This document shows positions 1,548 to 40,966 of a stretch of 64,000 nt of DNA, in pieces (within the stretch, counting starts at the first letter, position 1; every line of letters starts with the position of its first letter). The stretch comes from Candidatus Caldarchaeum sp. (lineage in GTDB: Archaea; Thermoproteota; Nitrososphaeria_A; Caldarchaeales; Caldarchaeaceae): positions 68,662-132,661 of the forward strand of contig JAWBKB010000003.1 in the NCBI GenBank assembly GCA_038831915.1. Reading direction: 5' to 3'. The position numbers and the translations under genes are program-made. The notes below the pieces were generated by a model. It was not told the DNA's origin. It did not search any database and saw nothing but the letters and a program-made list of their open reading frames with translations.

Positions 1548-2158
1548 TAGAGCTTCTCGCCGACGACTTTGTCAACTACTATCGCTCCGAAGAAGCCAAA
1601 CAGGTTTCAACTTTCCTCGATGAGAAAAAGAAGTTCTTCACAATGGTTTTCGGTGAAGAATCGATTGATTCGGTCAAGCCCGAACACCTGAATGACGTGT
1701 TTGGAATGTTGTCGACGGCTGGGTGGCGGCAAATCCTCGAAGCTGTCTTAAATAAGTATGGATTTGAAAGCGTGGTCGAGCATGTGAAATATTTTCTTTA
1801 TGGGTCGGAGCCTTTGGAAATTAGGTTTGACACGTTTTTCGAACGTTTACCCGAAGTTCCGCAGCTGGCCTTGATGGAGGTTGCGACCTTCGCTCAGCCG
1901 AAAAACTTCTGCATCTGGGACGATGCAGCGAAAAAAACCATCATCTACATCGGGCACAGCCGGATGCATGGCCTTTCCGAAACATCGTTCCAGGAAACAA
2001 TTTCAGGGCTTGACTATGTTTGGGCACGGTTCGCGTTAAACCATGTTCGTCAGATTCTTTCCGCTTACGTGAGCCGTAAAATCGACTATGTAGACGTTCA
2101 TCTGTTTACGAGGTTTGTTTATGATAGATTTGTCTTGAAAAAATTTGTGAATGTTTAG
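1544..2158 (+). CDS. hypothetical protein
   Basis: 204-aa ORF with a TTG start coupled to the upstream zinc-ribbon ORF. No recognisable family. Confidence 0.4.
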   Translation: MIELLADDFVNYYRSEEAKQVSTFLDEKKKFFTMVFGEESIDSVKPEHLNDVFGMLSTAGWRQILEAVLNKYGFESVVEHVKYFLYGSEPLEIRFDTFFERLPEVPQLALMEVATFAQPKNFCIWDDAAKKTIIYIGHSRMHGLSETSFQETISGLDYVWARFALNHVRQILSAYVSRKIDYVDVHLFTRFVYDRFVLKKFVNV

Positions 2159-3027
2159 AAGAATTGGCCTGCGTATAGCATCGATATTCTGAGGGCGAGT
2201 GCTCCGACGATTAGGCTGACGTAGAGTCTTAGCAGTATGTTTCTTGACGGTGGTGTTTTGGCGGCGAAAGCGATGTATGAATGGGTTGCGGGCAGACCGA
2301 GTCCAACCAATATGTATCCGATGTAGAACATGGGGGCGGCGAGTGGGAACGGGTTGGCTAACAGATTCATCACAGCTACGGGGCTTTCGACGAATACGAG
2401 GTGGGCGATTGTTGCGAGGCCGCTGACCGTGAGAAGCAGCACTGTGTAGGTGTTCATATCGACGAGCAAATCTGTGAATTCTTCATAGAGCTGTTTGTTG
2501 CGTATGATCATTAGTCCGACGACGCCTATGGCCGCGAGTATTCCTGTGAAAAGGTATAGGTATGGTAGGATGGGTGTTTGCCAGAGCAGTCTTTTCGAAG
2601 CCGCCATCAACAAAATACCTGCTTGAAGACCGGCTGGAAACGCTGAAAGCAGTAAGATTATTTCGAAGAACCTTCGCACTTTGACGACGGCGGCTGGCTT
2701 GACCCAGAAAACCGCCGTGACAACGGCGGCTAACGTGAAAACTGTCAAAACGGGGACTGTTCGAGACATCACGGAGGTGCCGAGGACGAGGAGGTTGACT
2801 ATGGCGTATGCGGCTCTTTCGGGACGTCCAAGCTCGACTACCAGCGTTATCATTCCGACGACGGCTAAAACTGCTGAAATCGTGATTGAAGCCCTGATTA
2901 GGGATGAAAACCGCTGCCAGTTTCGGAGGCTTAGGAGCACGCCGATGATGGCGAGGCCCGCGGCGAGTCCGAAGACATATTCTTCGATGACTATAGGCCA
3001 GTCCCAAGCGAACTGACCGGCTGCCAT
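2155..3027 (-). CDS. NrfD/PsrC-type polytopic membrane anchor subunit of the molybdopterin oxidoreductase (formate dehydrogenase-like) complex
   Basis: 290-aa protein, hydrophobic throughout (about 8 predicted TM helices). It is the last gene in the operon with the catalytic and 4Fe-4S subunits, and its start abuts the Fe-S subunit stop (3027/3029). Confidence 0.65.
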   Translation of the reverse strand: MAAGQFAWDWPIVIEEYVFGLAAGLAIIGVLLSLRNWQRFSSLIRASITISAVLAVVGMITLVVELGRPERAAYAIVNLLVLGTSVMSRTVPVLTVFTLAAVVTAVFWVKPAAVVKVRRFFEIILLLSAFPAGLQAGILLMAASKRLLWQTPILPYLYLFTGILAAIGVVGLMIIRNKQLYEEFTDLLVDMNTYTVLLLTVSGLATIAHLVFVESPVAVMNLLANPFPLAAPMFYIGYILVGLGLPATHSYIAFAAKTPPSRNILLRLYVSLIVGALALRISMLYAGQFF

Positions 3028-3028
3028 C

Positions 3029-4024
3029 CTACTTCCCCTGACCGTTGTTCTTCTTCAAAATGCTGTTTTTCCGTTCGCCAAGCCATCTAATGGCTCCGAC
3101 GACGCCGAGAACGAGAACTCCGGCGAGGCCGAGGGCGTTAAACTGTGAAATGAGTCGTTCGGTGCGTGTGCTCGGCCTTTCTTTGTAGACTTCAGGCAGG
3201 CCAAGCTCTTCGGGAGGTCGTTTTAAGACGTAGATGACGTTCGTCCCACCTGCTTCTTCGAGACCGTAGATGAAGCCGCCTGTTCTCGCGGCTTTTTCAC
3301 GAGCCATCCGGACGATTTCGTTGCGTGGACCCCATTTCAACGCGTCCGTTGGACATGTTTCAACACACGCAGGTTCGAGAAGGTTGTGCGAGCTGTATGG
3401 GAAGATGTTTTTGATTTCGAACTGCGGGTTGTAGGTGTCGCCTTTGAAAGCCGTTACGGCTATGGGTTTGTTCGATATTCTGTCGGCGCAGAGTGTGCAT
3501 TTTTCGACGACTCCTAGTTCAAAGTTCATCCTTGGAACGTCGAAGGGACATGCTTCGATGCAGTTGCGGCATCCGATGCAGAGGTCGGTTCTAACCACGA
3601 CCGGGCCTTCTGGATATTTCCACAACGCGGTGGTGGGACATCCATAGACACATGGAGCTTCGACACAGTGCATACAGCTTACTCTCGTAAACAGCCACTG
3701 AAGCGTGTCGCCTTCTCCGAATTCGTCGAACTTCATCGTCAGCCATGTATGTGCTTCGAGGTTCTGCGGATTGGTGAACGAAACGATTTCCGAGCCGGCG
3801 TAGCCTTTCTTCCCAACGGCGATTTCACGGCCGAGCTTCGCGACAGGGTCGTCTACTTCCCTGTACATCGGCTCTCTGTCGTTCCATCTTTTGCACGCAA
3901 CTTGGCAAGCTCTGCATCCGATGCAGAGGTCTTGGTCGAAAAGCATCGCGAAACTGTTGGCGGCTACTTGCTCATATTTTCCGAACCGGTCTTTTGTTGC
4001 TTGTTCAGGTACGAGCGACATCAT
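3029..4024 (-). CDS. 4Fe-4S ferredoxin-type electron-transfer subunit (FdnH/HybA-like) with C-terminal TM helix
   Basis: Several CxxCxxCxxxCP cluster motifs (e.g. CIGCRACQVACKRWN, CMHCVEAPCVYGCP, CIGCRNCIEACP). C-terminal hydrophobic helix LGLAGVLVLGVVGAI. Confidence 0.85.
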   Translation of the reverse strand: MMSLVPEQATKDRFGKYEQVAANSFAMLFDQDLCIGCRACQVACKRWNDREPMYREVDDPVAKLGREIAVGKKGYAGSEIVSFTNPQNLEAHTWLTMKFDEFGEGDTLQWLFTRVSCMHCVEAPCVYGCPTTALWKYPEGPVVVRTDLCIGCRNCIEACPFDVPRMNFELGVVEKCTLCADRISNKPIAVTAFKGDTYNPQFEIKNIFPYSSHNLLEPACVETCPTDALKWGPRNEIVRMAREKAARTGGFIYGLEEAGGTNVIYVLKRPPEELGLPEVYKERPSTRTERLISQFNALGLAGVLVLGVVGAIRWLGERKNSILKKNNGQGK

Positions 4025-4032
4025 GTATCACC

Positions 4033-7000
4033 TCACGCTTTCTCCACCCTGACAAGGGCTATCTTGGTCTCCGGCATGCCTGTCTCCTCATCCATCGCGT
4101 CGGGGAAGAGCTTGTTGGTTATCACGTTGGGACGGCCGAGCGGGCGCTGGAACCCATAAGCCCACGGCATCGCGATAATTTCCCAAAGCTTCCCGTTGAT
4201 CACCAAAGGCCTCACCCTGTTAGTAACCATGACTTTGGCGACAACAGGGTCGTTGAGGTTGCGTTTCGACACAATTTTGACCCGGTCTCCTGTCTTGACG
4301 CCGAGCTTGTTGGCGAGCGACGGGCTCATTTCGACGAACAGCTCAGGCATCATTTCTGCAAGCCATGGAATCGTCCGCGTCAATATACCGGTGTGCTGAT
4401 GTTCAGTAAGCCTGAACGATGTGAGGATGACGTTGAACCCTTCCTCGACGGTTCCTATAACCATGCCGGCTTCGAACTTGTTTCCAGGATGGAATCCTTT
4501 CGGCGGCGTAATTCCAAGCTCTTTGAAGTATGGATGGTCTCCCACGAGGGGTGGATATTGTTTGACGAGTTCTTTGTCAGGTGATTCGGCTGGCTCATAA
4601 TAGCCTGCGAATCCACGGCCTCTTCGTGCGTAGAAGCTCGACCAGAAAGTCGCCCTGTTCCCCGGTTTGAAGAAGTTGAAGCCGAGGGCCATCAGTCCAC
4701 GTGGGTCGCGCGGTTCCTTCAAGTCATACATGTTCCTCTGGTTGTCGGGCCAAGCCCATCCCCAGTACTTGAATATCTTGAACCGCTCCGTGTAAGCGTC
4801 CATAAATGTTTTGTCGCGTTGAGCCATCCTGTTTTCACCGTTCGGCCCAACGATGCCTCGGTAGATACGGACTGTTTTGTCGATTTCTTTCGATACTTCA
4901 AATGCTTCGGGCTCTGTGTCGAGGTCTTCGATGCTTGGTTTAGTTCGTTTCGTTGGATGACGGTAGTCCCAGAGCTCGTCGACGTTTTTGCCGTTGCTGA
5001 GTCTCCGCAGCTCGGCCAGAGGTACGCCTTTGTCACTTGAAAATCTTTCCGAAGGCAGGACGATCAATCCTTTCTGGCGTAGGCGTTTGAACAGCTGGTC
5101 GATGAACCAGAGATCGGATCTGATGTCTTTGAACGTCCTTTTCTGCGGGTCATACGGATCGACGACGCGGTTGTTGTCCTGGAGCTTGTGCCTCCACTGA
5201 ATCGTGTGACCCGTGTTGGTGACGCTTCCGCTGTTCTCGTATTTGCTGGCGGCGGGAAGCACGATGTCGGCAAAATGAGCTGTTTCGGAAAGGAATAAAT
5301 CCATCACCACGACGAAAGCGTTGGGCGAGCTGAGTCCTCGGATTACTTGGCTCGCGTTACCCACAGAGACGACCGGGTTCATGCCTTGGAGAATGATGAA
5401 TTTGATGCGGCCTGCCTCCATTTCTCTGAAGTATTCGATGGTTGTTAGGCCGGGTTCAACTGGCACGTCTGAAATGACTATGCCGTTGTCTGGGTCGGTT
5501 TCGGGATAGGTTCCGATGAAGATGCCCCAGTGCATTTCGGCTTCGCGCCACGAGGCGTAGTGGCGAAGGTCTCCGACCCATGCGATGTTCAACGCTTGAG
5601 CGATTTCAGCAGCTGTTTTTCCTTCCCTGACCAAGTTCTTGTATTTCTGGTAGCGTCTGATGTCTGCTTCAGCTCCACCCGATATTCTTTCTCTTTCACC
5701 GAGACCTCCCGGAACACGTCTGTATCCAAGCCAAATGTGCATCAGATGGTTCATGTCGTTGGAGCCTTGGACGTTGCTGATTCCTCTCAACACATTGGCT
5801 CCTCCTCCCGGCTGTCCGACGTTGCCGAGCAGAAGCTGAAGCTGTCCGAACAAGCGGATTATCTGTGTTCCGCATGTGTGCTGCGTTGCTCCGATGCACC
5901 AGACGAATTGTCCGGGCCTGTTAGCTGGGTTGGTGTATTCGGCTGCCATTTGCAGGAATTTGTAGGCAGGGACGCCGGTGATTCTTTCGACTTCTTCGGG
6001 CGTGAACCTGCTGACATGTTCTTTGAATTTTGAAAATACTGAGTCGGGGTTTTTCTCCCAGTCTTCGAGGAACTGGCCTGTTTGATGATGAAGTGGGAAG
6101 TCGGTTCTTTCTTGGAGGAATTGTTTGTCATAGAGGCCGTTGCGTATGGCGTAGTTCATTATGCCGAGAACGATGGCAGCTTCGGTGCCCGGCCTGAACC
6201 AAGCAAACATGTGAGCTTTTGATGCTGTCCGTCCAAACCGCGGGTCGAAGACAAGCAGTTTACCGCCTTTCTCTATGGACCTTGACGTAAACTTATAGGC
6301 TTCGGGATGTTGTTCAGCGTGGTTTGAGCCGATGTTTATCGTGACTTTTGCGTTCTGCATGTCTACGGCTGAATTGGTCATGACTCCGAAACCGTAGACA
6401 TCGGCGAGGCCTGCGACCGTTGTCGAGTGGCATCTGCGCGCTTCGATGTCGCAGTTGTTGGTGCCCATCAGCATGGCGAGCTTTCTGCCGAGATAGGCTT
6501 CTTCGTTGCTCAGGTAGTCTGTGGAAATGCGCGCGATGGGTAATGCACGTGGATGAAGCTGCCATGCTTTTTCAGGGTCGTCGAGGTTGCGGCCTCCGGG
6601 TATGAGATAGTTGCCTTTAGCGTCAAGCCATGGCTTGTTCTTTTCCCATTCACGGTAAATCTGTTCGTATTTTTCGATGATTATTCGGAAAGCTTCTTCC
6701 CATGTGATTTCACGCCACATCGGGTCTTCGTTCTCACCTTTCCGCGGGTTAGTGCGCATCAACGGCCTTCGAAGCCTGTATGGGTTGAACTGCGGCAACA
6801 ACATTATGGAAGCCTGACCCTTTGAGCAGAGCGTGCCTTCGGTGTGAGGAGCTTCGAGGTCTGGAGCGATGTCGACTACACGGCCATCGACAACTGTTCC
6901 GACAACTGTGCATCCGACGGCGCAGTATGGACAAACGCTCGGAATTCGCTGTCCTTCTAGCAGCTTCGGCTTCGGAGCCGGCAGAGCTCTTGCCGACTGG

Positions 7001-7131
7001 ATACTTAACCCCGCCAGCGAAAAGCCGGACAGAGCCGTCGTTGCAGTTGTAGCTACTTTTAAAAAGTCTCGTCTTTTTAGTGAAACTGCCTGACTCATTT
7101 GTTGAACATACTGTGATAACAGTAAATACAT
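4033..7131 (-). CDS. fdhA: formate dehydrogenase catalytic (molybdopterin) subunit, Tat-exported, Cys at the Sec/Cys position
   Basis: Twin-arginine signal LKRRDFLKVATTATTALSGFSLAGL. N-terminal Fe-S motif CPYCAVGCTV...C. Active-site signature ARRCHSTTVAGLADVYGFGVMTN resembles E. coli FdnG ARV(U)HGPTVASL. No in-frame TGA. The likely true start is the internal Met (MSQAVSLKRRD, about 7098). Confidence 0.85.
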   Translation of the reverse strand: MYLLLSQYVQQMSQAVSLKRRDFLKVATTATTALSGFSLAGLSIQSARALPAPKPKLLEGQRIPSVCPYCAVGCTVVGTVVDGRVVDIAPDLEAPHTEGTLCSKGQASIMLLPQFNPYRLRRPLMRTNPRKGENEDPMWREITWEEAFRIIIEKYEQIYREWEKNKPWLDAKGNYLIPGGRNLDDPEKAWQLHPRALPIARISTDYLSNEEAYLGRKLAMLMGTNNCDIEARRCHSTTVAGLADVYGFGVMTNSAVDMQNAKVTINIGSNHAEQHPEAYKFTSRSIEKGGKLLVFDPRFGRTASKAHMFAWFRPGTEAAIVLGIMNYAIRNGLYDKQFLQERTDFPLHHQTGQFLEDWEKNPDSVFSKFKEHVSRFTPEEVERITGVPAYKFLQMAAEYTNPANRPGQFVWCIGATQHTCGTQIIRLFGQLQLLLGNVGQPGGGANVLRGISNVQGSNDMNHLMHIWLGYRRVPGGLGERERISGGAEADIRRYQKYKNLVREGKTAAEIAQALNIAWVGDLRHYASWREAEMHWGIFIGTYPETDPDNGIVISDVPVEPGLTTIEYFREMEAGRIKFIILQGMNPVVSVGNASQVIRGLSSPNAFVVVMDLFLSETAHFADIVLPAASKYENSGSVTNTGHTIQWRHKLQDNNRVVDPYDPQKRTFKDIRSDLWFIDQLFKRLRQKGLIVLPSERFSSDKGVPLAELRRLSNGKNVDELWDYRHPTKRTKPSIEDLDTEPEAFEVSKEIDKTVRIYRGIVGPNGENRMAQRDKTFMDAYTERFKIFKYWGWAWPDNQRNMYDLKEPRDPRGLMALGFNFFKPGNRATFWSSFYARRGRGFAGYYEPAESPDKELVKQYPPLVGDHPYFKELGITPPKGFHPGNKFEAGMVIGTVEEGFNVILTSFRLTEHQHTGILTRTIPWLAEMMPELFVEMSPSLANKLGVKTGDRVKIVSKRNLNDPVVAKVMVTNRVRPLVINGKLWEIIAMPWAYGFQRPLGRPNVITNKLFPDAMDEETGMPETKIALVRVEKA

Positions 7132-8931: not shown

Positions 8932-9705
8932 TCAGGGTTTAAGCATGCTGAGCCAGCCCGGGTAGGAAGGAAGGTATGTGTGTGTTTTCGTGAATCCCGC
9001 CAGCCTAAACCCGTACATCATGAATGAGGAGCTCGTTCCTTCCTCGCAGTAAAAAACAACTGAAACATCAGGGTTGATTTGTTTCTCTTCGGCCGCTTGT
9101 TTTATCGCTTCAAAGTTGAATAAATTCGTTGATGAATAGATTTTGTGCCATGGAATGTTTACGGCGGAGGGGATGTGTCCGAATTCATAGTCGGCTGGAG
9201 AACGTGTATCGACTATCACGGTTTTTTCATCGCTGTTTTGGATAAGTTGTATGATTTTCTCACGCGTAATTATACTTTGTTCATCGTATCGTAGTGTCAG
9301 GTTTGTTTTCTGAATGAGTGGTTGTTTCTGCGCTGTGACTGGATGGTTTTGTTTGACGTATTCGTCGAAAGTAGTTGAAAGCAGTCCGAGCTTTCTGAAA
9401 CCGAGAAGCTCTAAAGTGTATGCTGCACGTGCCGCGTGCCTGCCGTAAAAATTGTCATAAAAAATTATGAAATCATCCTCGGTGACGCCGATGTGGGAAA
9501 GGGTTGCTGATAATTCTTCTGCCGGAGCTGGATATAGGGCCACGCCTACGAGTTTGATGAAGTTCGAAAACGGCAGAGGTAGAGCATTTGGAATGTGTCC
9601 CGCCCTGTATTCTATCAGCCGTCTTACGTCGATGATTTTGTAGTTGTCGATGTTGTCCAGGAGGTTATGTGGTGTGATGAGTTTTGGGATGATTGGTGAC
9701 TTCAA
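8932..9705 (-). CDS. tandem rhodanese-domain sulfurtransferase
   Basis: Two rhodanese-like halves. Candidate catalytic Cys in VVFYCEEGTSSSFMMYGF. Lies next to Moco and thiolation genes. Confidence 0.65.
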   Translation of the reverse strand: MKSPIIPKLITPHNLLDNIDNYKIIDVRRLIEYRAGHIPNALPLPFSNFIKLVGVALYPAPAEELSATLSHIGVTEDDFIIFYDNFYGRHAARAAYTLELLGFRKLGLLSTTFDEYVKQNHPVTAQKQPLIQKTNLTLRYDEQSIITREKIIQLIQNSDEKTVIVDTRSPADYEFGHIPSAVNIPWHKIYSSTNLFNFEAIKQAAEEKQINPDVSVVFYCEEGTSSSFMMYGFRLAGFTKTHTYLPSYPGWLSMLKP

Positions 9706-11660
9706 TCTGCGACGACGCTGCCTGTGTCGGGTAGGACGCGGTAGCCGGGCAACGTGTTTTCCAGCTTTCTTTGAAATGGTTTGCTTGCGAGGGTTTCGAT
9801 GAATTTTTGGACGGCTGGTTTGCTGAACCGCTGCTTTGGGATGACGAAGTCGTAGATTTCCTCGGCGAGCGGGATGAATTCGAGGCCGTAGTGTTTGGCG
9901 ACCGCTTCAAGGGTTATGCCGACGTCAGCGGTTCCATGCATCACCGCGGCGGCGACAGCCGTATGTGTCCTGACTTCGTAGTCGTATCCACGGATGCGTG
10001 TGTAGGGGTTATGGACACCGTGTTCGGCGAGCATGATGTCCAGATAAGTTCTTATCCCCGAGCCTTTCACACGGTTGACAAACATCACGTCTTCACGGAG
10101 AAGGTCTTCAAAGGACGTGACCTTGAGCGGGTTGCCCTGCCGTGTCACGAATCCGATTTTTCTCGCGTAGCCACGTATGAGGAGGACTTTTCCCCGTAGC
10201 CCAAGCCGGTCCATCATGAAGCCGTTGTATTCGCGGGTTTTTTCGTCGAGGAGATGTGTTCCTGCGATGTCTGCTTCACCGCGTTTGACAGCCTGCCACC
10301 CGCCTATGGAGCCGACGTTAATCACTTTCGAGTCAGTTGACCAGTTTTGATCGAGGAGTATGTCGACGCCGGGGCAGTGGCTTCCGATTATCACGAGTTC
10401 TGCTGGTGTTATTTTTTCGGAGAGAAGGCTGACCTCGACGGTTTCGCCTTCTTCGAAAAATTCGCGTGTTTCATCTGCTTCCACTATTCCGTCGGCAACC
10501 GACAAAACATATGTCGAGCCCGACTGTCCGAGCAACGGATACGCGACAACACCGTTCTCAGACACGACCGTCTGTACGGCTATCATCTCTTTTTTTCCAC
10601 GTCCAGCCTCTACTCGGAAAGCCAGTTTAGCGGTGATTGTTCCGGATTTTCGCGGCCTGGCTCCGGCGAGTTTTTCGACGATGGGTTTGACGAGTTTCTG
10701 GAAAACCATCATCGCGGACAGGGGGAAGCCGGGAAGACCTATGAGAATCGTGTTTCCCGAGACGGCTAAGGCCGTTGGTTTTCCCGGCTTGATTTTCAAC
10801 CCATGGACGAGAACCCGGCCACCGCTCAGCTCGCTGAAAACCCTGTAAACCATGTCGCCGAAACCCGCCGAAGTGCTTCCCGAAGTAATCACGAGGTCGT
10901 ATCCATTTTTCACCGCGTAACCAATCTTCTCAACGAGCAGCTGGTGGTCGTCGGCGATGATTCCGTGAAACTCTGCGTCAGCTCCTAACTCGGTCAGCAT
11001 CGCTGTCAACGTGGGGCCGTTAATGTCGTAGATTTTGCCGAGCTCAAGAGGTTGTCCACAGGGGATTACTTCGTTTCCCGTCGAGAAAACCGCGGCCCTT
11101 ACCTTCCGGTAGACTGGAATTTCGGTCACGCCAACTGACGTGAGCACAGCGATTTCCCTCGGCGAAATCACGGTGCCTTTTCGAAGAACCATGTCCCCCA
11201 CCGATACGTCTGAACCCGTTTGAGCGATGTTCTCACCCGGTGAAACAGGTCTGAAAATCATCACTTTGTTATCGCCGACTTTCTTGGTGAACTCCACCAT
11301 CACGACAGCGTTGGCCCCGCGTGGAATGGGGGAGCCGGTCGCGATTTCAACACACTGGCCCCGAGCGACCTCGCCGTGGAACGGGACGCCGACCTCAGCG
11401 TTTCCAACCACTTCGAGGATGACTGGGTTTTCCTCGGTGGCTGTGAAAAGGTCGGATGCTTTTACCGCGTAGCCGTCGACCGTCGACCTGTCAAACGGCG
11501 GATAGGATGTTTTGGCGAGCAGGTTTTCCGCGAGAATTCTGCCGAGCGATTGGTTCACATGTATTTTTTCGACGCCGAGCGGTTTGAGGCCGCCGACTTG
11601 CTTGTCCAGAAGTTCAAGCGCTTCTTCGATTGATACGAGGGTGTGGAAAACCGTCGCCAA
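9702..11660 (-). CDS. moeA: molybdopterin molybdenumtransferase MoeA fused to a C-terminal periplasmic-binding-protein-like domain
   Basis: N-terminal 400 aa match MoeA (SLGRILAENLLAKTSYPPFDRSTVDGYAV...GDNKVM...ISPREIAVLTSVGVTEIPVYRKVRAAVFSTGNE...VITSGSTSAG). An extra C-terminal ~230-aa PBP-like domain is typical of archaeal MoeA. Confidence 0.8.
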   Translation of the reverse strand: MATVFHTLVSIEEALELLDKQVGGLKPLGVEKIHVNQSLGRILAENLLAKTSYPPFDRSTVDGYAVKASDLFTATEENPVILEVVGNAEVGVPFHGEVARGQCVEIATGSPIPRGANAVVMVEFTKKVGDNKVMIFRPVSPGENIAQTGSDVSVGDMVLRKGTVISPREIAVLTSVGVTEIPVYRKVRAAVFSTGNEVIPCGQPLELGKIYDINGPTLTAMLTELGADAEFHGIIADDHQLLVEKIGYAVKNGYDLVITSGSTSAGFGDMVYRVFSELSGGRVLVHGLKIKPGKPTALAVSGNTILIGLPGFPLSAMMVFQKLVKPIVEKLAGARPRKSGTITAKLAFRVEAGRGKKEMIAVQTVVSENGVVAYPLLGQSGSTYVLSVADGIVEADETREFFEEGETVEVSLLSEKITPAELVIIGSHCPGVDILLDQNWSTDSKVINVGSIGGWQAVKRGEADIAGTHLLDEKTREYNGFMMDRLGLRGKVLLIRGYARKIGFVTRQGNPLKVTSFEDLLREDVMFVNRVKGSGIRTYLDIMLAEHGVHNPYTRIRGYDYEVRTHTAVAAAVMHGTADVGITLEAVAKHYGLEFIPLAEEIYDFVIPKQRFSKPAVQKFIETLASKPFQRKLENTLPGYRVLPDTGSVVAD

Positions 11661-35341: not shown

Positions 35342-37165
35342 ATGGTTTCAGCCCATGGCTATGCGAACTGTATCGCTTGGGTTGATTTAACCAACAAGAA
35401 AATCGAATACCGTGAAGTCGATGAAGAAGATGCGAGGAAGTTCATCGGCGGCAGAGGTCTGGGTGGAAGAATTATTTTGAAGAACGAGGTTGGGAAAGAC
35501 CCTCTCGCCCCTAAAAAGGTCATCGCGGTTTTGAACGGCCTGCTCACGGGAACAACCGTGCCGATGAGCGGAAGAATCGTCGCGGTTGCACGTTCACCTC
35601 TCACTGGTGTATTTGCGGACACTCACGCCGGCGGATGGGCCGGCGCAGCTATGAAATGGGCCGAGTTCGACGCCGTGGTCATGCATGGTGCAAGCGACCA
35701 GCCCGTGTACCTGCTTGTGAAAAACGAGACGGTTTCGATCGAGCCTGCAGATGGGCTGTGGGGTAAAACACCTGAGGAAGCATATCATCTGCTTGTGCAG
35801 AAATACGGAAAAGCTGTTCAGTTCTATGGAATAGGACCTGCTGGAGAAAACCTCGTTAAATTCGCAAACCTTATGCATTTTGGAGAAGGCGCGCTGGGAA
35901 GGGCATCCGGCCGAACAGGATTAGGAGCTGTATTTGGCTCGAAGAAAGTCAAGGCCCTCGTAATAATCGGCGACGAAAAAACATGCCCAAGCCCGCCAAC
36001 CCCGAAGAATACGAAAGAATCCGTGCGTTGAAGAACATTCTCGACAGCGCTGTGACAGGTCCGAGGAAAGGCGGATTATCTGTTTACGGAACAGCTGTTC
36101 TGGTGAACGTGGTCAACTAAATCGGAGCATGGCCGACCCGCAACGCCAAAGACACTCAGTTCGAATTCGCCTACTATCTTTCAGGTGAAAACTTGCGGAG
36201 CACGATTTTGAAGGAAACACCAACGTGCCACCCCTGTCCCGTCGCGTGCAAACGTGAAGTCGAAGTGTATGACGGCAAGCTGAAACACAAATCCGAAGGC
36301 CCTGAATTCGAAAGCATCTGGGCCCTCAGAGCTATGATAGGTCTGGGTCACATCGAAGCCGTTTCATACCTCAACTATCTCGCAAACCTCTACGGCTTAC
36401 ACAATCGAGCTCGGCAACACACTGGCCGTCGCAGCCGAAGCGAACGAAAAAGGACTTCTCAAAGACGGTGTGAAATGGGGAGACGTCGACCGCTTCGCTG
36501 AACTTGTCAAACAAATTGCCCACCGTGAAGGCGAGCTGGGAAACATTCTCGCAGAAGGAGGTACGAAAGCCGCGAAGCTGTTAGGCGACCCAGACCTTTC
36601 CATGTCCGTGAAAGGAATGAGCATCCCCGCATACGACCCTCGCGGCCTCAAAGGATTCGCTCTCGCTTACAGCGTTTCGCCACGTGGTGTATGCCATCTT
36701 CGAGCCTACACACCGGCTTCGGAAATACTCGGCATCCCCTACAAAACAGACCCCCTCGCAACAGAAGGAAAAGTCGACCTTGTCATGGTTCTCGAAAGAT
36801 TGTTCGCTTTCAGCGACAGCCTCCACATGTGCAAATTCAGCAGCTTCGCCCTCGGGCCCGAAGACTACGCCGACCTATTCGCAACATTCACAGGAATCGA
36901 AATGACGCTCGACGAATTGTTCAAAGTCGGCGAAAGAATCATCACACAAGAGAGATACTTCAACCAACTGCACCGAATAACAAGAAAAGACGACAGACTT
37001 CCCAAACGATTCATGAAAGAACTTGCTTCGAGCGGGCCATCAAAAGGCCACGTCATCGACGAAGCCACTTTGAACAGCCTACTCGACGAATACTACCGCA
37101 AACACGGATGGAACCCCGACGGAACAGTTCCAGCCGAAATACTACGTCAACTCGCCATAGCCTAA
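35342..37165 (+). pseudogene. aor: tungsten-containing aldehyde:ferredoxin oxidoreductase (AOR family) disrupted by two indels and an in-frame TAA
   Basis: Three ORFs (35342..36031, 36193..36501, 36470..37165) cover the AOR N-terminal, middle and C-terminal domains, with a total span of 608 codons. Lesions are a frame change in an A6 run at 35976-35981 (GDEK|NMPKPANPEEYERIRALKN...), TAA at 36118-36120 within ...LVNVVN*IGAWPTRN, and a 2-nt change in a CACA tract at about 36400 (NLYGL|DTIELGNTLAV...). Confidence 0.7.
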
Positions 37166-37185: not shown

Positions 37186-37950
37186 CTACGTCTTTCTCGA
37201 TGAACAAACCGGACATTTCGGGGATTTCGCAACCGGTAGCAGGAAAAATTCCAAATTCAACCCGTTGAAGACCAGAAGCTTTCCAACCAGAGGTTTGCCG
37301 GCACCCGTCATGATCTTAATCGTTTCCAACGCTTCGAGAGAGCCGATGGCACCTGGCACCGGCCCGACCACCGGAATAACTTCTTCAACCGTGGGAGTTT
37401 GAGGAATCAAACACCGCAGACAAGGCCCCTTACCCGGTATTATCGTCATCAGCCTCCCTTCAAACCCATACACCGCGGCATGAACAAACGGAACACCAGC
37501 CTGAACACATGCCTCGTTCAACAGAAACCTCGTCTCAAAATTATCCAGCCCATCAACAACCACGTCTACATCCTTCAACAGCTCAGATACATTATCTACC
37601 GACAACCTTAGTTGCAGGGCTTCCACGACAATTTCAGAGTTGATTGAACGGAGTCGACGCGCCGCTAAATCCACTTTCGAACAGCCCAAATCATGTTCCG
37701 AATAAGGCAGTTGACGGTTAAGATTGCTTAATTCGAGCACGCCGTCCTCGACGAGCCTAATACGGCCGACACCCGCCGCGGCCAAATACATCGCCGCAAC
37801 ACCACCCAGCCCTCCAACACCCACAACAAGCACCGTCGACCTCTTCAACCGAACTTGTCCGTCCACACCAATCTCGGGAACACGAAGCTGCCTGTCATAT
37901 CTTTCGAGCTCCCTACCGCTCAGCACACCAAAAAAGAACAAACACCTCAA
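37186..37950 (-). CDS. moeB: E1-like adenylyltransferase (MoeB/ThiF/TtuC family) with C-terminal CxxC...CxxC zinc motif
   Basis: ThiF Rossmann motif VLVVGVGGLGGVAAMYLAAAGVGRIRLVEDGVLELSNLNRQ. C-terminal CLRC...CPVC. Start abuts the stop of the MoaD-like gene. Confidence 0.75.
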   Translation of the reverse strand: MRCLFFFGVLSGRELERYDRQLRVPEIGVDGQVRLKRSTVLVVGVGGLGGVAAMYLAAAGVGRIRLVEDGVLELSNLNRQLPYSEHDLGCSKVDLAARRLRSINSEIVVEALQLRLSVDNVSELLKDVDVVVDGLDNFETRFLLNEACVQAGVPFVHAAVYGFEGRLMTIIPGKGPCLRCLIPQTPTVEEVIPVVGPVPGAIGSLEALETIKIMTGAGKPLVGKLLVFNGLNLEFFLLPVAKSPKCPVCSSRKT

Positions 37951-38250
37951 TTAAAAACAGCCGCCGGCAACAGGCGGAACCAACGCCACTTCATCCCCTT
38001 CGTTCAGAACAGTCGCCAACCCGTCGTGAAAATCGATGTCCCTGCCGTTCATAAAGATCTTGAACATCTTCTTGGGTGAGCCAGATTCATCGAGCACGGT
38101 TTCCACAAACTTTTGACCAAACTGTTTCGAAAGAATTTCCAGCAGAAACCTTACATCACCATGCTGTGAAAGCTCCACAAAAATTTTTCCAGATCCACCC
38201 AAAGCATCGCGAGCAGAAGCGTAAGCCTTGACGAAAACCCGCGCCATCAC
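37951..38250 (-). CDS. moaD: MoaD/ThiS-family ubiquitin-like sulfur carrier with a C-terminal Cys-Phe extension after the Gly-Gly
   Basis: 99 aa. The VFVKAYASARDALG...MNGRDIDFHDGLATVLNEGDEVALVPPVAGG pattern matches MoaD. The ORF ends ...AGGCF*, read directly from the reverse complement of 37951-37980. Confidence 0.6.
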   Translation of the reverse strand: MMARVFVKAYASARDALGGSGKIFVELSQHGDVRFLLEILSKQFGQKFVETVLDESGSPKKMFKIFMNGRDIDFHDGLATVLNEGDEVALVPPVAGGCF

Positions 38251-38341
38251 TAGCCATACACAAAAACATAAAAACCCAATTTAAACCAACCACGGGAAAA
38301 CCGAAAACGTATAAAACACACTCAGCCAACTTGACAGAGGG

Positions 38342-39178
38342 TTGGCGACCAAACTGAGAAAGGACTTCATCAAGCTCCTCGAAGAAGACCGAGAATTCAG
38401 ATACACAGTAGCGGGATACCTCGGCCTTTCAGAGATACTGAAAAGACTTGACACAGTCCAAGACCAGATAAGAGGATTACAGGAAGCGCAGAACAAGTTA
38501 TGGGAAGAAGTTCGCAGTCTAAGGGAAGGACAGAACAAGCTATGGGAAGAAGTGAGGAGCCTAAGAGAGGGGCAGAACAAGCTATGGGAGGAAGTACGCA
38601 GTCTAAGGGAAGGACAGAACAAGCTATGGGAAGAAGTGAGGAGCCTAAGAGAGGGGCAGAACAAGCTATGGGAGGAAGTTAGGAGCTTGAGAGAAGGCCA
38701 GAACAGTCTTTGGGAAGAGGTGAAAAATCTCCGTGCTGAGCAGATGAAGCTGCGTAACTATGTTATTTCTGGGTTTACTGAGCTTCGTTCGGCTTTGGGG
38801 GTGACTTTCGAGATGCATGCCGCAGCTTATTTGGAGCTTGTTTTGGATGAAATGGGTTATTCCTCAGCGAAAATTAATCGGAAGTTGTTTGTTCACGACG
38901 GCGAGGTTGTTGAGGTGAATCTTTTCTGTGAAGAGCCGTTGGTTGTGGGAGAGGTGACTGTTGCTGTGAGGAGCGAGGAAGACGCTGTTAGGGAGGTTGC
39001 GAAACTTGTTGAACGTGTCGATGTGGTGGTGTCGAAGTTTGGTAGGAAGCCTGATCTCACGGTTTTGTCGGTTGGCCGTGCTTCGCCTGAGGCGGCTGAA
39101 AAGCTTCGAGCCGAAGCTGAAAAACACGGTGTTAGGCTTGTTTTAGGCAGAGAAATTGAGGAATTTCTAAGCGTCTAG
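38342..39178 (+). CDS. coiled-coil protein with six tandem 14-aa repeats (LWEEVRSLREGQNK) and a C-terminal alpha/beta domain of unknown function
   Basis: 278-aa ORF. The repeat block is encoded by six to seven 42-nt tandem repeats at about 38484-38718. Confidence 0.55.
   Translation: MATKLRKDFIKLLEEDREFRYTVAGYLGLSEILKRLDTVQDQIRGLQEAQNKLWEEVRSLREGQNKLWEEVRSLREGQNKLWEEVRSLREGQNKLWEEVRSLREGQNKLWEEVRSLREGQNSLWEEVKNLRAEQMKLRNYVISGFTELRSALGVTFEMHAAAYLELVLDEMGYSSAKINRKLFVHDGEVVEVNLFCEEPLVVGEVTVAVRSEEDAVREVAKLVERVDVVVSKFGRKPDLTVLSVGRASPEAAEKLRAEAEKHGVRLVLGREIEEFLSV
38484..38718 (+). repeat. in-frame tandem repeat, 42-nt unit x ~6 (alternating two variants, i.e. an 84-nt higher-order repeat)
   Basis: gcagaacaagctatgggaagaagtgaggagcctaagagaggg alternating with gcagaacaagctatgggaggaagtacgcagtctaagggaagga, inside the CDS 38342..39178. 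Confidence 0.8.
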
Positions 39179-39307: not shown

Positions 39308-40966
39308 TTATTTTTTGAGTATTTGTATGATGTGTTTGGCTGCGATGTATCCGAAGGTGCATGCTGGGCCGGGTGTTGAGCCTGGGCCGGGATATGTTCC
39401 TCCGAATATCGTGGCTGCGGTGTTTCCTGCGGCGTATATCCCGGGTATTGGGTGGCCGTCTTGATGTATGACTTGGGCGTTTTCGTTGGTGAGTAGCCCG
39501 CCGCATGTGCCAAGCTCTCCGGGATATACGGCTGTTGCGTAGAAAGGCGGGTGTGTTAGTGGGCCGAGGTTGGGGTTGGGTTTAACCGCCGGGTCGCTGT
39601 AGAAACGGTCGTACGCGCTTTCACCCCTGTGATAGTCTTCGTCCACTCCTTTCCGAGCCATTTCGTTGAACCGCTGACCTGTTTTCAGCAATCCTTTTTC
39701 GTCGACATCTATTTTTCGAGCGAGTTCTTCGAGGGAGTTGGCACGTGTCAAATATTGTGGGCTTGTTGCTTTTTCCGGTGTTCGTCTTGGCATGAGTGTT
39801 CCGAAGAGGTATTTGGAGCGGTGTTTGTTGTCGATGATGAGCCATGCGGGGATCGCTGCTGATGTTTTGCGTTGGTGGTTGTAGATGTCTCGCCAGCAGT
39901 CGACGTATGAAGCTGATTCGTTCATGAATCTTTCGCCGTTCTGGTCGACGATGAAGCCGAATGGTAGGGAGCGTTCGGCGAGGACAAAGGATGCACGTCC
40001 ATCGGGAGTTATTGCGACGGGGCCTCCCCATGCCTTATCCATCAAAGCGGTTTTGGCGCCGATTTCCATGGCGGCTTTGATAGCGTCACCTGTGTTGCCC
40101 GAAGCTCCCACCGTCCATTCCTAACTCGTCGGCTTGAGAAGAAACTGTTCCCGCATTTCTTGACTTTGTTCGAAGCCTCCAGCGGCGAGCAGAACGCCGC
40201 CTCGGGCCTTCACCGTCACGGGTTTTCCTTCGTGTAACACCACGGCGCCGACCACTCTGTCGTTTTCAACCAGCAGGCGTTCAAGCGGTGACTCGAGCCA
40301 GATTTTCACATTTTTCTGCAGACAGAGATAGAGCAGTTGACCGATGAGTGAGTTGCCGAGTGTGACGAGCCGGCGGCCAAGAAGCCTTCCGCCGACCAGC
40401 CGAAGCCCGAGCCGAAGCATGGTCGCCATGCCTGCCGAGCTCCGGGCCAAATACATCTTCGATGCCTCGGTTATGTAAATCGGTATGGGCGGAGCCCCGG
40501 GATATCGACGGAGTTTGTCACGCCATTTTCCGAGCTTGTTTACGTCGAAAGCGACTCCTTCGATTGCTCTTCCAAAAACGGAGCCTCCGGGTTTTTCAGG
40601 GTAGTAGTCAGGATATTCTACTGATGCTCTCCATCTGAAGCCGAGGTCTTCGAGGAACTTGACCATTTCAGGGCCGTTGGTGAGGTAGGCGTGGAATTTT
40701 TCCGGCGTCGTTGCTTCGCCTACTTCCGGGACAACGTGTTTGAGATATGTCATGGCTTCTTCGTAAGAATCTTTGAGACCAGCTCGAGCTGAAACATGAT
40801 TGTTGGGTATCCAGAGGCCTCCCCCGGACATCGCGCTCGAGCCGCCCACCAGCTCGGTCTTCTCAACAACTAATACTTCATAGCCGGCGTGACGAATTGT
40901 CAAGGCGCCTGTCAACGCGGCCGCTCCGCTGCCTACAACTAACGCATCGACCGATACATGTTCCAT
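39308..40966 (-). pseudogene. FAD-dependent oxidoreductase (fumarate reductase/3-ketosteroid dehydrogenase flavoprotein-like) interrupted by an in-frame TAG
   Basis: N-terminal ORF (40121..40966) has the FAD-binding motif VVGSGAAALTGA and ends ...FLLKPTS. TAG at 40121-40123 is in frame with the downstream ORF, which begins EWT(V)GASGNTGDAIKAAMEIGAK and ends ...YAAGNTAATIFGGTYPGPGSTPG. Confidence 0.6.

Follow-up and report, generated by a model that had tools for sequence, protein, structure and literature searches.

Carriers of the MoaD/ThiS/ubiquitin type have to lose any residues that follow their Gly-Gly end before they can be adenylated by an E1 enzyme. The window analyzed here, a stretch of 64,000 nucleotides from Candidatus Caldarchaeum sp., encodes such a carrier next to an E1-like gene, with a product that, as translated, continues beyond Gly-Gly with Cys-Phe and therefore lacks a free Gly-Gly carboxylate end. 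Since E1 adenylates the carboxylate of the glycine, Cys-Phe must be removed first. The locus thus raises the question of where this tail came from, and whether it is an evolved gate of activation, a sign of decay or an accident that is tolerated.

The features concerned are collected in Table 1. On the minus strand, direct reading gives the 3' end of the carrier gene as gtt ccg cct gtt gcc ggc ggc tgt ttt taa, with the last five codons at 37965-63 (ggc), 37962-60 (ggc), 37959-57 (tgt), 37956-54 (ttt) and 37953-51 (taa). Gene callers on the conspecific contigs place the start at ATG 38247, giving a protein of 98 aa; the 99-aa version stems from a mechanical ORF list, in which the gene starts at GTG 38250. 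In profile searches, the carrier matched TIGR01687 (moaD_arch; 58.1 bits, cutoff 49.5) and PF02597 (ThiS; 44.2 bits, cutoff 22.5), and stayed below the cutoffs of the SAMP1 equivalog NF041918 (49.8 bits, cutoff 60) and of the bacterial MoaD model TIGR01682 (22, cutoff 66). As TIGR01687 ends (position 88/88) at residue 97 of the 99-aa ORF, the second Gly, Cys-Phe lies beyond what the family model covers. The original prediction of a MoaD-family protein with two additional residues after Gly-Gly, adjoining an E1, is borne out by this direct reading and by these matches, together with that of the E1 to PF00899 (248 bits). Alignment A2 shows no variation at either glycine (G95 and G96), and the best-matching solved structures, 2M19 and the Methanosarcina acetivorans SAMP1 homologue 2L52, end in Gly-Gly. 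A protein 99% identical to the carrier (P0001) is named MoaD/ThiS family protein [Candidatus Caldarchaeum sp.]; the four conspecific contigs described below encode exactly P0001, GGCF included.

Table 1. Positions of the carrier locus and associated features, numbered from the first letter of the window
Feature	Position	Strand	Remarks
Tandem rhodanese	8932-9705		
Aldehyde:ferredoxin oxidoreductase (AOR, tungstopterin enzyme) pseudogene	35342..37165	(+)	Convergent with the E1 gene
ThiF/MoeB/UbaA-family E1-like adenylyltransferase, 246 aa	37186..37926	(-)	Start GTG 37926
Carrier-E1 spacer, 24 nt	37927..37950	(-)	GAGGTG Shine-Dalgarno-like motif at 37948-37943; lacks conservation as a coding region
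Derived tail: tgt (Cys), ttt (Phe), taa (stop)	37951..37959	(-)	Former intergenic DNA according to alignment A1
Ubl/sulfur-carrier gene	37951..38247	(-)	Archaeal MoaD/SAMP1-type beta-grasp protein, end ...VPPVAGG-CF
Gly-Gly codons ggc ggc	37960..37965	(-)	End of the family profile and ancestral C-terminus
TTTAAAT, TATA-box-like element	38279..38285	(-)	About 35 nt upstream of the carrier ATG; read from the sequence

The tail is real and fixed among the sequences available for this species. The GGCF junction is base-for-base the same in four independent assemblies (GCA_038886635.1, Logan SRR17794512, Logan SRR27730019 and ENA ERZ27245615), so that it is identical across five conspecific sequences including the window. 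A sequencing error hiding a true stop after Gly-Gly, which the original prediction had considered, is excluded by this agreement. The longer contigs L002 and L003 are approximately 99% identical to the window at the DNA level, and within the species the carrier gene varies at a single site, a non-synonymous M/V exchange at residue 66 of the 99-aa ORF.

The origin of the tail became apparent from comparison with the closest distinct relative, P0002 on contig L001 (83% protein and 79% DNA identity), which ends with ...VAGG-TAA. In DNA alignment A1, L001 reads GCCGGCGGT TAAAGACATG TGTTTTTTACTG and the window species reads GCCGGCGGC TGTTTTTAATTG, the aligned ends being GGCGGT-TAAAGACATG-TGTTTTTTACTG in L001 and GGCGGC-TGTTTTTAATTG in the window and L002 to L005. 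The 10 bp missing in the window lineage comprise the ancestral stop codon and 7 nt of spacer, with the deletion junction lying between 37960 and 37959. The deletion moved intergenic TGTTTTTAA into the reading frame, and the window Cys-Phe-stop is homologous to intergenic TGTTTTTTA of L001, the homologous downstream DNA of the two reading TGTTTTT(T/A)A. Since 10 bp including the stop were lost, Cys-Phe represents translated former intergenic DNA. The original prediction had set against itself the case that close relatives end in Gly-Gly and that Cys-Phe arose from a point mutation in the stop codon; the relatives do end in this way and a stop was indeed lost, but through a 10-bp deletion, which rules out the point mutation.

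In addition to L001, the stop directly follows the Gly-Gly codons in the orthologues on L006 (Ca. Caldarchaeum SKYG24, 64%), L007, L008, L009 and L010. An exhaustive search of the wider family gave 144 cluster representatives, of which 105 end at Gly-Gly (a word-indexed search gave two carrier homologues only). The remaining 39 do not end in Gly-Gly and nearly all carry unrelated tails of 1–34 residues; one of them has no Gly-Gly at all, and another ends with ...ADG and has Gly-Gly further upstream. Since L006 to L010 and 105 of the 144 representatives end at Gly-Gly, the polarity of the change is clear, and the alignments indicate that the tail is derived, young and specific to the lineage of one species. 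The metagenome scan gave no lineage of intermediate identity (83% to 99%) from which the deletion could be dated; the locus scan used the 3-sequence alignment A3, a 14-sequence alignment being too diverse. In the same E1-linked orthologous group, L062 and L063 have tails unrelated to that of the window, RDCLAE and RDCLA, one on each contig; since their length differs at 97.7% contig identity, tails in this group are labile. The comparison of C-terminal extensions in related carriers proposed earlier thus reveals no conservation of Cys-Phe.

Carrier and E1 very probably belong to one operon. The block GGTTTA[A/T]ATTGGGTTTTT at the TATA-like element is kept in L001, and TTTAAAT is probably the promoter of the pair. 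The translational coupling originally proposed, in which the stop of the carrier adjoins the start of the E1 at 37951/37950, was not upheld: when the window is compared with L001 and L006, conservation sets in at LSGRELERY, the spacer before this motif having a 1-nt indel relative to L001 and showing no similarity to L006, and the gene callers place the E1 start at GTG 37926, 24 nt past the carrier stop. TTG 37950 is merely the first possible start codon after that stop. Alignment of the E1 with ThiF (1ZFN) and MoeB (1JW9) located the GxGxxG motif (GVGGLGG) and two CxxC zinc motifs (CLRC and CPVC). The protein scored below the cutoffs of all NCBIfam equivalogs, contains no rhodanese domain and has no crossover-loop cysteine, as MoeB C187 aligns to Glu and ThiF C184 to a gap; the loop cysteine is absent from the orthologous E1s of L001 and L006 as well. 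We take this residue to correspond to UbaA Cys188, presumably needed for sampylation. Its absence favors an enzyme that only adenylates, the sulfur being delivered in trans, and weakens the role in conjugation, i.e. as a SAMP-like protein modifier, that had been offered for the carrier. C. subterraneum has a single prokaryote-type E1 of the ThiF/MoeB type.

The other genes named in the original prediction, two MoeA genes, FdhD, a two-domain (tandem) rhodanese and a PP-loop/TtuA-like protein, were all found in the window, together with a large molybdopterin oxidoreductase operon. The window ORFs scanned included no MoaE, and the window contains no other small ORF ending in Gly-Gly. Adjoining the E1 gene is an AOR gene with frameshifts at approximately 35986-36007 and approximately 36400 and an in-frame TAA at 36118-36120; in ungapped tblastn, the intact 610-aa AOR of L006 matched the window in three pieces (frames 2/1/2), and the gene is likewise split into three in L002 and L003. 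In the relatives, AOR is unbroken where covered, at full length in L006 to L010 and for the C-terminal portion only in L001 and L062/63 (in the latter, the C-terminal 224 residues). Judged from the Ubl-E1-AOR arrangement kept in L006 to L009, L001 and L062/63, this neighborhood is conserved across Caldarchaeales.

A protease able to expose Gly-Gly was not encoded nearby. A motif search in all frames of the window confirmed the earlier statement that no JAMM protease is visible there, the regular expression giving only two chance matches in unrelated ORFs, and the same search over the loci fetched around the carrier relatives (L001 to L029) gave none. Searching elsewhere in the genome, as had been suggested, yielded P0178 on JAWALW010000003.1 of the conspecific MAG GCA_038886635.1, which carries the GGCF gene on another contig (JAWALW010000012.1). 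P0178 is an orthologue of CsJAMM (56% identity, PF14464) with an intact E...HSHx7Sx2D motif, HSHPDHPPNPSAYD; it is also present, together with the GGCF contig L003, in sample SRR17794512. Its operon has the order PALP enzyme, JAMM and a 180-aa ThiS precursor ending with GG-AAVSQ.... The proteins CsJAMM, C0702 and C1603 were rebuilt from the synthetic genes in the supplement of PMC6043591, with scan-induced frameshifts corrected. Three other candidates for the JAMM of this species, P0172, P0173 and P0182, were rejected as belonging to other Caldarchaeum genomes, in which CsJAMM orthologues are widespread. P0173 does co-occur with the GGCF junction in assembly ERZ27245615.

Processing of such precursors is known in this genus. 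According to the literature, C. subterraneum has four prokaryote-type Ubls, of which CSUB_C0702 and CSUB_C1603 have 89 and 12 residues after Gly-Gly, respectively (PMC3082918). CSUB_C1012 and CSUB_C0525 of that species are the candidate orthologues of the window carrier. The stand-alone CsJAMM (CSUB_C0703) cleaves both precursors after Gly-Gly (PMC6043591, Supplementary Fig. 8a), and CsRpn11 cuts the ubiquitin precursor only and neither of these two (PMC6043591). In the conspecific MAG, a MoaE gene overlaps that of a C1603-type MoaD (P0215) ending with GG-HLKLGSLTPRCP, with MoaB and MoaC alongside, and the 12-residue C1603-type tail (xLKLGSxTPxxP) recurs in conserved form in many Caldarchaeum genomes. 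P0221, a MoaD ending with GG-FT, was set aside because it comes from another species. Since a separate MoaE-coupled MoaD is present in the same MAG, the window carrier is a third paralogue and is probably not the main molybdopterin-synthase subunit, which makes its suggested feeding of Moco synthesis doubtful.

From these data, we consider it probable that the tail is a tolerated stop-loss accident and that Cys-Phe is trimmed by the resident JAMM. With the ancestral stop removed by the 10-bp deletion, translation runs two codons into former intergenic DNA to the next TAA. The CsJAMM orthologue, which would normally cut the MoaE-coupled MoaD (12-residue tail) and the 180-aa ThiS/CysO-like protein after Gly-Gly, is the likeliest remover of Cys-Phe, cleavage of the window carrier being putative. 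Once trimmed, the carrier could undergo adenylation by the E1 and then thiocarboxylation in trans, possibly with the tandem rhodanese, as the E1 has neither a rhodanese domain nor a loop cysteine; its sulfur may then be used for the tungsten or molybdenum cofactor or for tRNA thiolation. In Thermococcus, Ubls show partial redundancy between the synthesis of the tungsten cofactor and the thiolation of tRNA (PMC11323500). The tail would accordingly be near-neutral, buffered by an existing maturation protease, and not an evolved gate of the QbsE kind. Retained function is supported by i) the long-term dN/dS of the carrier (0.084), ii) its intact frame, iii) a suitable protease in the genome and iv) another lineage (L062/63) that tolerates a tail. 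Against trimming by JAMM stand the unlinked position of its gene, the low identity (28–31%) of the carrier to the two proven CsJAMM substrates, the non-synonymous nature of the one difference seen in the gene within the species, and the restriction of the AOR pseudogene to this species, which fits relaxed selection on the carrier.

This last observation leads to the principal alternative, which we regard as unlikely though worth serious consideration, namely that the carrier is decaying: loss of the stop would block adenylation of a protein whose purpose was lost when AOR became a pseudogene, and the E1 would remain intact through other Ubls. The conserved Ubl-E1-AOR arrangement points in this direction, as does the occurrence of the broken AOR (two frameshifts and a nonsense codon), found here only, in the very species that has the Cys-Phe tail. 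The MoaE-coupled MoaD would make the carrier dispensable for Moco, and the window strain has a fresh nonsense codon in a nearby FAD oxidoreductase. In a relative-rate test, the carrier showed 9 amino acid changes on the window branch versus 4 on the L001 branch, as compared with 15 versus 16 in the E1; however, neither this excess (p = 0.27) nor the difference between carrier and E1 (Fisher test, p = 0.32) is significant. Moreover, apart from the lost stop, the carrier frame is unbroken in each of the five sequences, L062/63 have tails and yet the covered portion of their AOR is unbroken, and the species has a JAMM that can remove tails of this kind.

Trimming by a non-specific carboxypeptidase or other exopeptidase that halts at the glycines appears improbable. 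The two-residue tail would be exposed on a flexible C-terminus, and broad-specificity carboxypeptidases of thermophiles release hydrophobic residues readily and Gly poorly; however, a dedicated Gly-Gly-specific protease is present in the genome. Still less credence can be given to an evolved pro-peptide, with Cys-Phe selected so that activation depends on JAMM as proposed for QbsE and QbsD. Such a gate would agree with the GG-CF end, which is the same as the reported tail of QbsE, with Cys as the first residue after Gly-Gly in the CsUb precursor and in 4 of the 39 representatives not ending in Gly-Gly, and with the conserved pro-peptides on other Ubls of the genus. It is largely refuted by the phylogenetic distribution, since neither the nearest relative nor the orthologues recovered from genomes have the tail, whose age does not exceed that of this species; furthermore, the tail consists of homologous intergenic DNA exposed by the deletion, and no JAMM gene is linked to it in the window or in loci L001 to L029. 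A sequencing or assembly artefact, which has nothing but prior possibility in its favor, is virtually inconceivable, the junction recurring in independently assembled data sets and differing from L001 by a 10-bp indel, not by a homopolymer slip.

The tolerated accident, with trimming by JAMM, adds little to what is known of the mechanism, since experiments on this genus and on bacteria have already documented JAMM-matured precursors of the MoaD/SAMP type. The window carrier is an evolutionarily young instance of a phenomenon already known in the genus, and is ordinary to that extent. Its value is modest and evolutionary: the exact mutation that turned the gene of a mature-form carrier into a precursor gene, a 10-bp stop deletion, is visible in a genome that already had the protease and in which the gene of an adjoining cofactor-dependent enzyme has newly become a pseudogene. 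The locus is therefore a natural test case for the neutrality of tails given a Gly-Gly-specific protease, and for the specificity of such a protease among Ubl paralogues. One may speculate, at long odds, that the accidental Cys-Phe now acts as a gate which ties the carrier to the protease of the CysM-JAMM-CysO-like operon, and thereby cofactor synthesis or tRNA thiolation to cysteine/sulfur status, and that, more generally, a Gly-Gly-specific JAMM lets stop-loss tails of Ubls become fixed. If stop-loss tails are indeed fixed where such a JAMM is present, the locus would be a snapshot of the origin of ubiquitin-type precursors.

Among the known systems, the CsJAMM system of Caldarchaeum is the closest. 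It belongs to the same genus-level lineage and involves MoaD/ThiS Ubls made with residues after Gly-Gly, where a stand-alone JAMM cuts in vitro, and the conspecific MAG has orthologues of this JAMM and of both precursors. The window carrier differs in that its tail has 2 residues instead of 12 or 89 and, unlike the conserved C1603-type tail, is not shared by orthologues; moreover, its cleavage is putative, whereas that of C0702 and C1603 was demonstrated in vitro. In the QbsE/QbsD system of Pseudomonas fluorescens (thioquinolobactin) and the CxnE/CxnF system (chuangxinmycin), a MoaD-like carrier likewise has residues after Gly-Gly, and a JAMM enzyme removes them before adenylation (PMC5925218). 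The QbsE tail is literally Cys-Phe, and its removal by QbsD has been proposed in work cited in PMC5925218. However, these systems are bacterial and reside in secondary-metabolite clusters that also encode the JAMM, which is unlinked in the window species. Since the window tail is the product of a species-specific deletion, and the orthologues end in Gly-Gly, its match with QbsE is a coincidence, and the analogy originally drawn does not extend to an evolved design. SAMP1 of Haloferax volcanii and 2L52 of M. acetivorans are also beta-grasp carriers paired with an E1 of the MoeB/UbaA type; however, these known proteins end in Gly-Gly, the window carrier falls short of the SAMP1 equivalog cutoff, and the window E1 differs from that of the SAMP1 system in lacking the loop cysteine. 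Finally, the JAMM operon of the window species has the same gene content (PALP, JAMM and ThiS-like) as the CysO/CysM/Mec+ system of Mycobacterium, in which Mec+ hydrolyzes a GG-Cys bond, the very bond that needs cutting in the window carrier; this operon is not at the carrier locus, however, and the carrier that belongs to it is the 180-aa ThiS protein, not the window carrier.

The E1 encoded next to the GG-CF carrier lacks the crossover-loop cysteine, with Glu or a gap aligned opposite MoeB C187 and ThiF C184, and the same residue is absent from its orthologues in L001, the locus of the closest distinct relative, and in the Caldarchaeales locus L006. It does not have a fused rhodanese; a tandem rhodanese is encoded by a stand-alone gene. 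This gene, a plain MoeA gene and an FdhD gene adjoin the other of the two MoeA genes of the window, whose product is fused to a PBP_like domain, and an operon for a Tat-signal molybdopterin oxidoreductase lies nearby.

Tails after the diglycine were not confined to GG-CF. In a different Caldarchaeales species, the orthologous carrier (1501-1809 of loci L062 and L063) has an unrelated tail. A GAA/TAA change makes its length differ between the two contigs, which are 97.7% identical: GG-RDCLAE in one, GG-RDCLA in the other. In Caldarchaeum, the MoaD that is coupled to MoaE (L058, 4001-4315; P0210-P0219 and P0224-P0226) extends 12 residues past GG, and this tail is conserved, with the consensus [YH]LKLGS[LR]TP[RL][WC]P; some relatives end in GG-FT or a bare GG. 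The conservation of the 12-residue tail in many genomes suggests that the MoaD pro-peptide does more than serve as a cleavable extension.

The aldehyde:ferredoxin oxidoreductase gene beside the E1 gene is a pseudogene: its reading frame changes twice, around 35986-36007 and around 36400, and a Glu codon of L006 is replaced by an in-frame TAA (36118-36120). It is also in three pieces in the conspecific contigs L002 and L003, and is uninterrupted (609-610 aa) in loci L006-L010. Immediately upstream of the carrier gene, in divergent orientation, a coiled-coil protein contains a tandem repeat coding for LWEEVRSLREGQNK. Because the gene calls for this protein (236 and 155 aa versus 278 aa) differ in L002, repeat copy number is suggested to vary among strains. 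The TAG in the FAD-dependent oxidoreductase gene is AAG (Lys) in the conspecific MAG contig L002, where the gene is whole (552 aa). Either the strain has its own nonsense mutation here, or the consensus of this one assembly is wrong.

Positions of the features discussed, in the window
Feature	Position	Strand	Remarks
Tat-signal molybdopterin oxidoreductase operon	2155-7131		
Tandem rhodanese	8932-9705		
MoeA with C-terminal PBP_like domain	9702-11660	-	molybdate/tungstate-binding type; 652 aa
Aldehyde:ferredoxin oxidoreductase pseudogene	35342-37165	+	reading frames 2/1/2
E1	37186-37926	-	
Coiled-coil ORF	38342-39178	+	
Tandem repeat	38483-38723		within coiled-coil ORF; 42-bp (14-residue) unit, ~5.7 copies
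FAD-dependent oxidoreductase (FAD_binding_2)	39308-40966	-	TAG in frame at codon 40123-40121

The JAMM protease gene, located elsewhere in the genome, was invariably found within an operon encoding PALP (cysteine-synthase-like), JAMM and a 180-aa ThiS/Urm1-like protein, with the PALP stop overlapped by the JAMM start (L050, 2090-4030, of GCA_038886635.1; L030-L054). The same set of genes makes up the CysM/Mec+/CysO cysteine pathway of mycobacteria.
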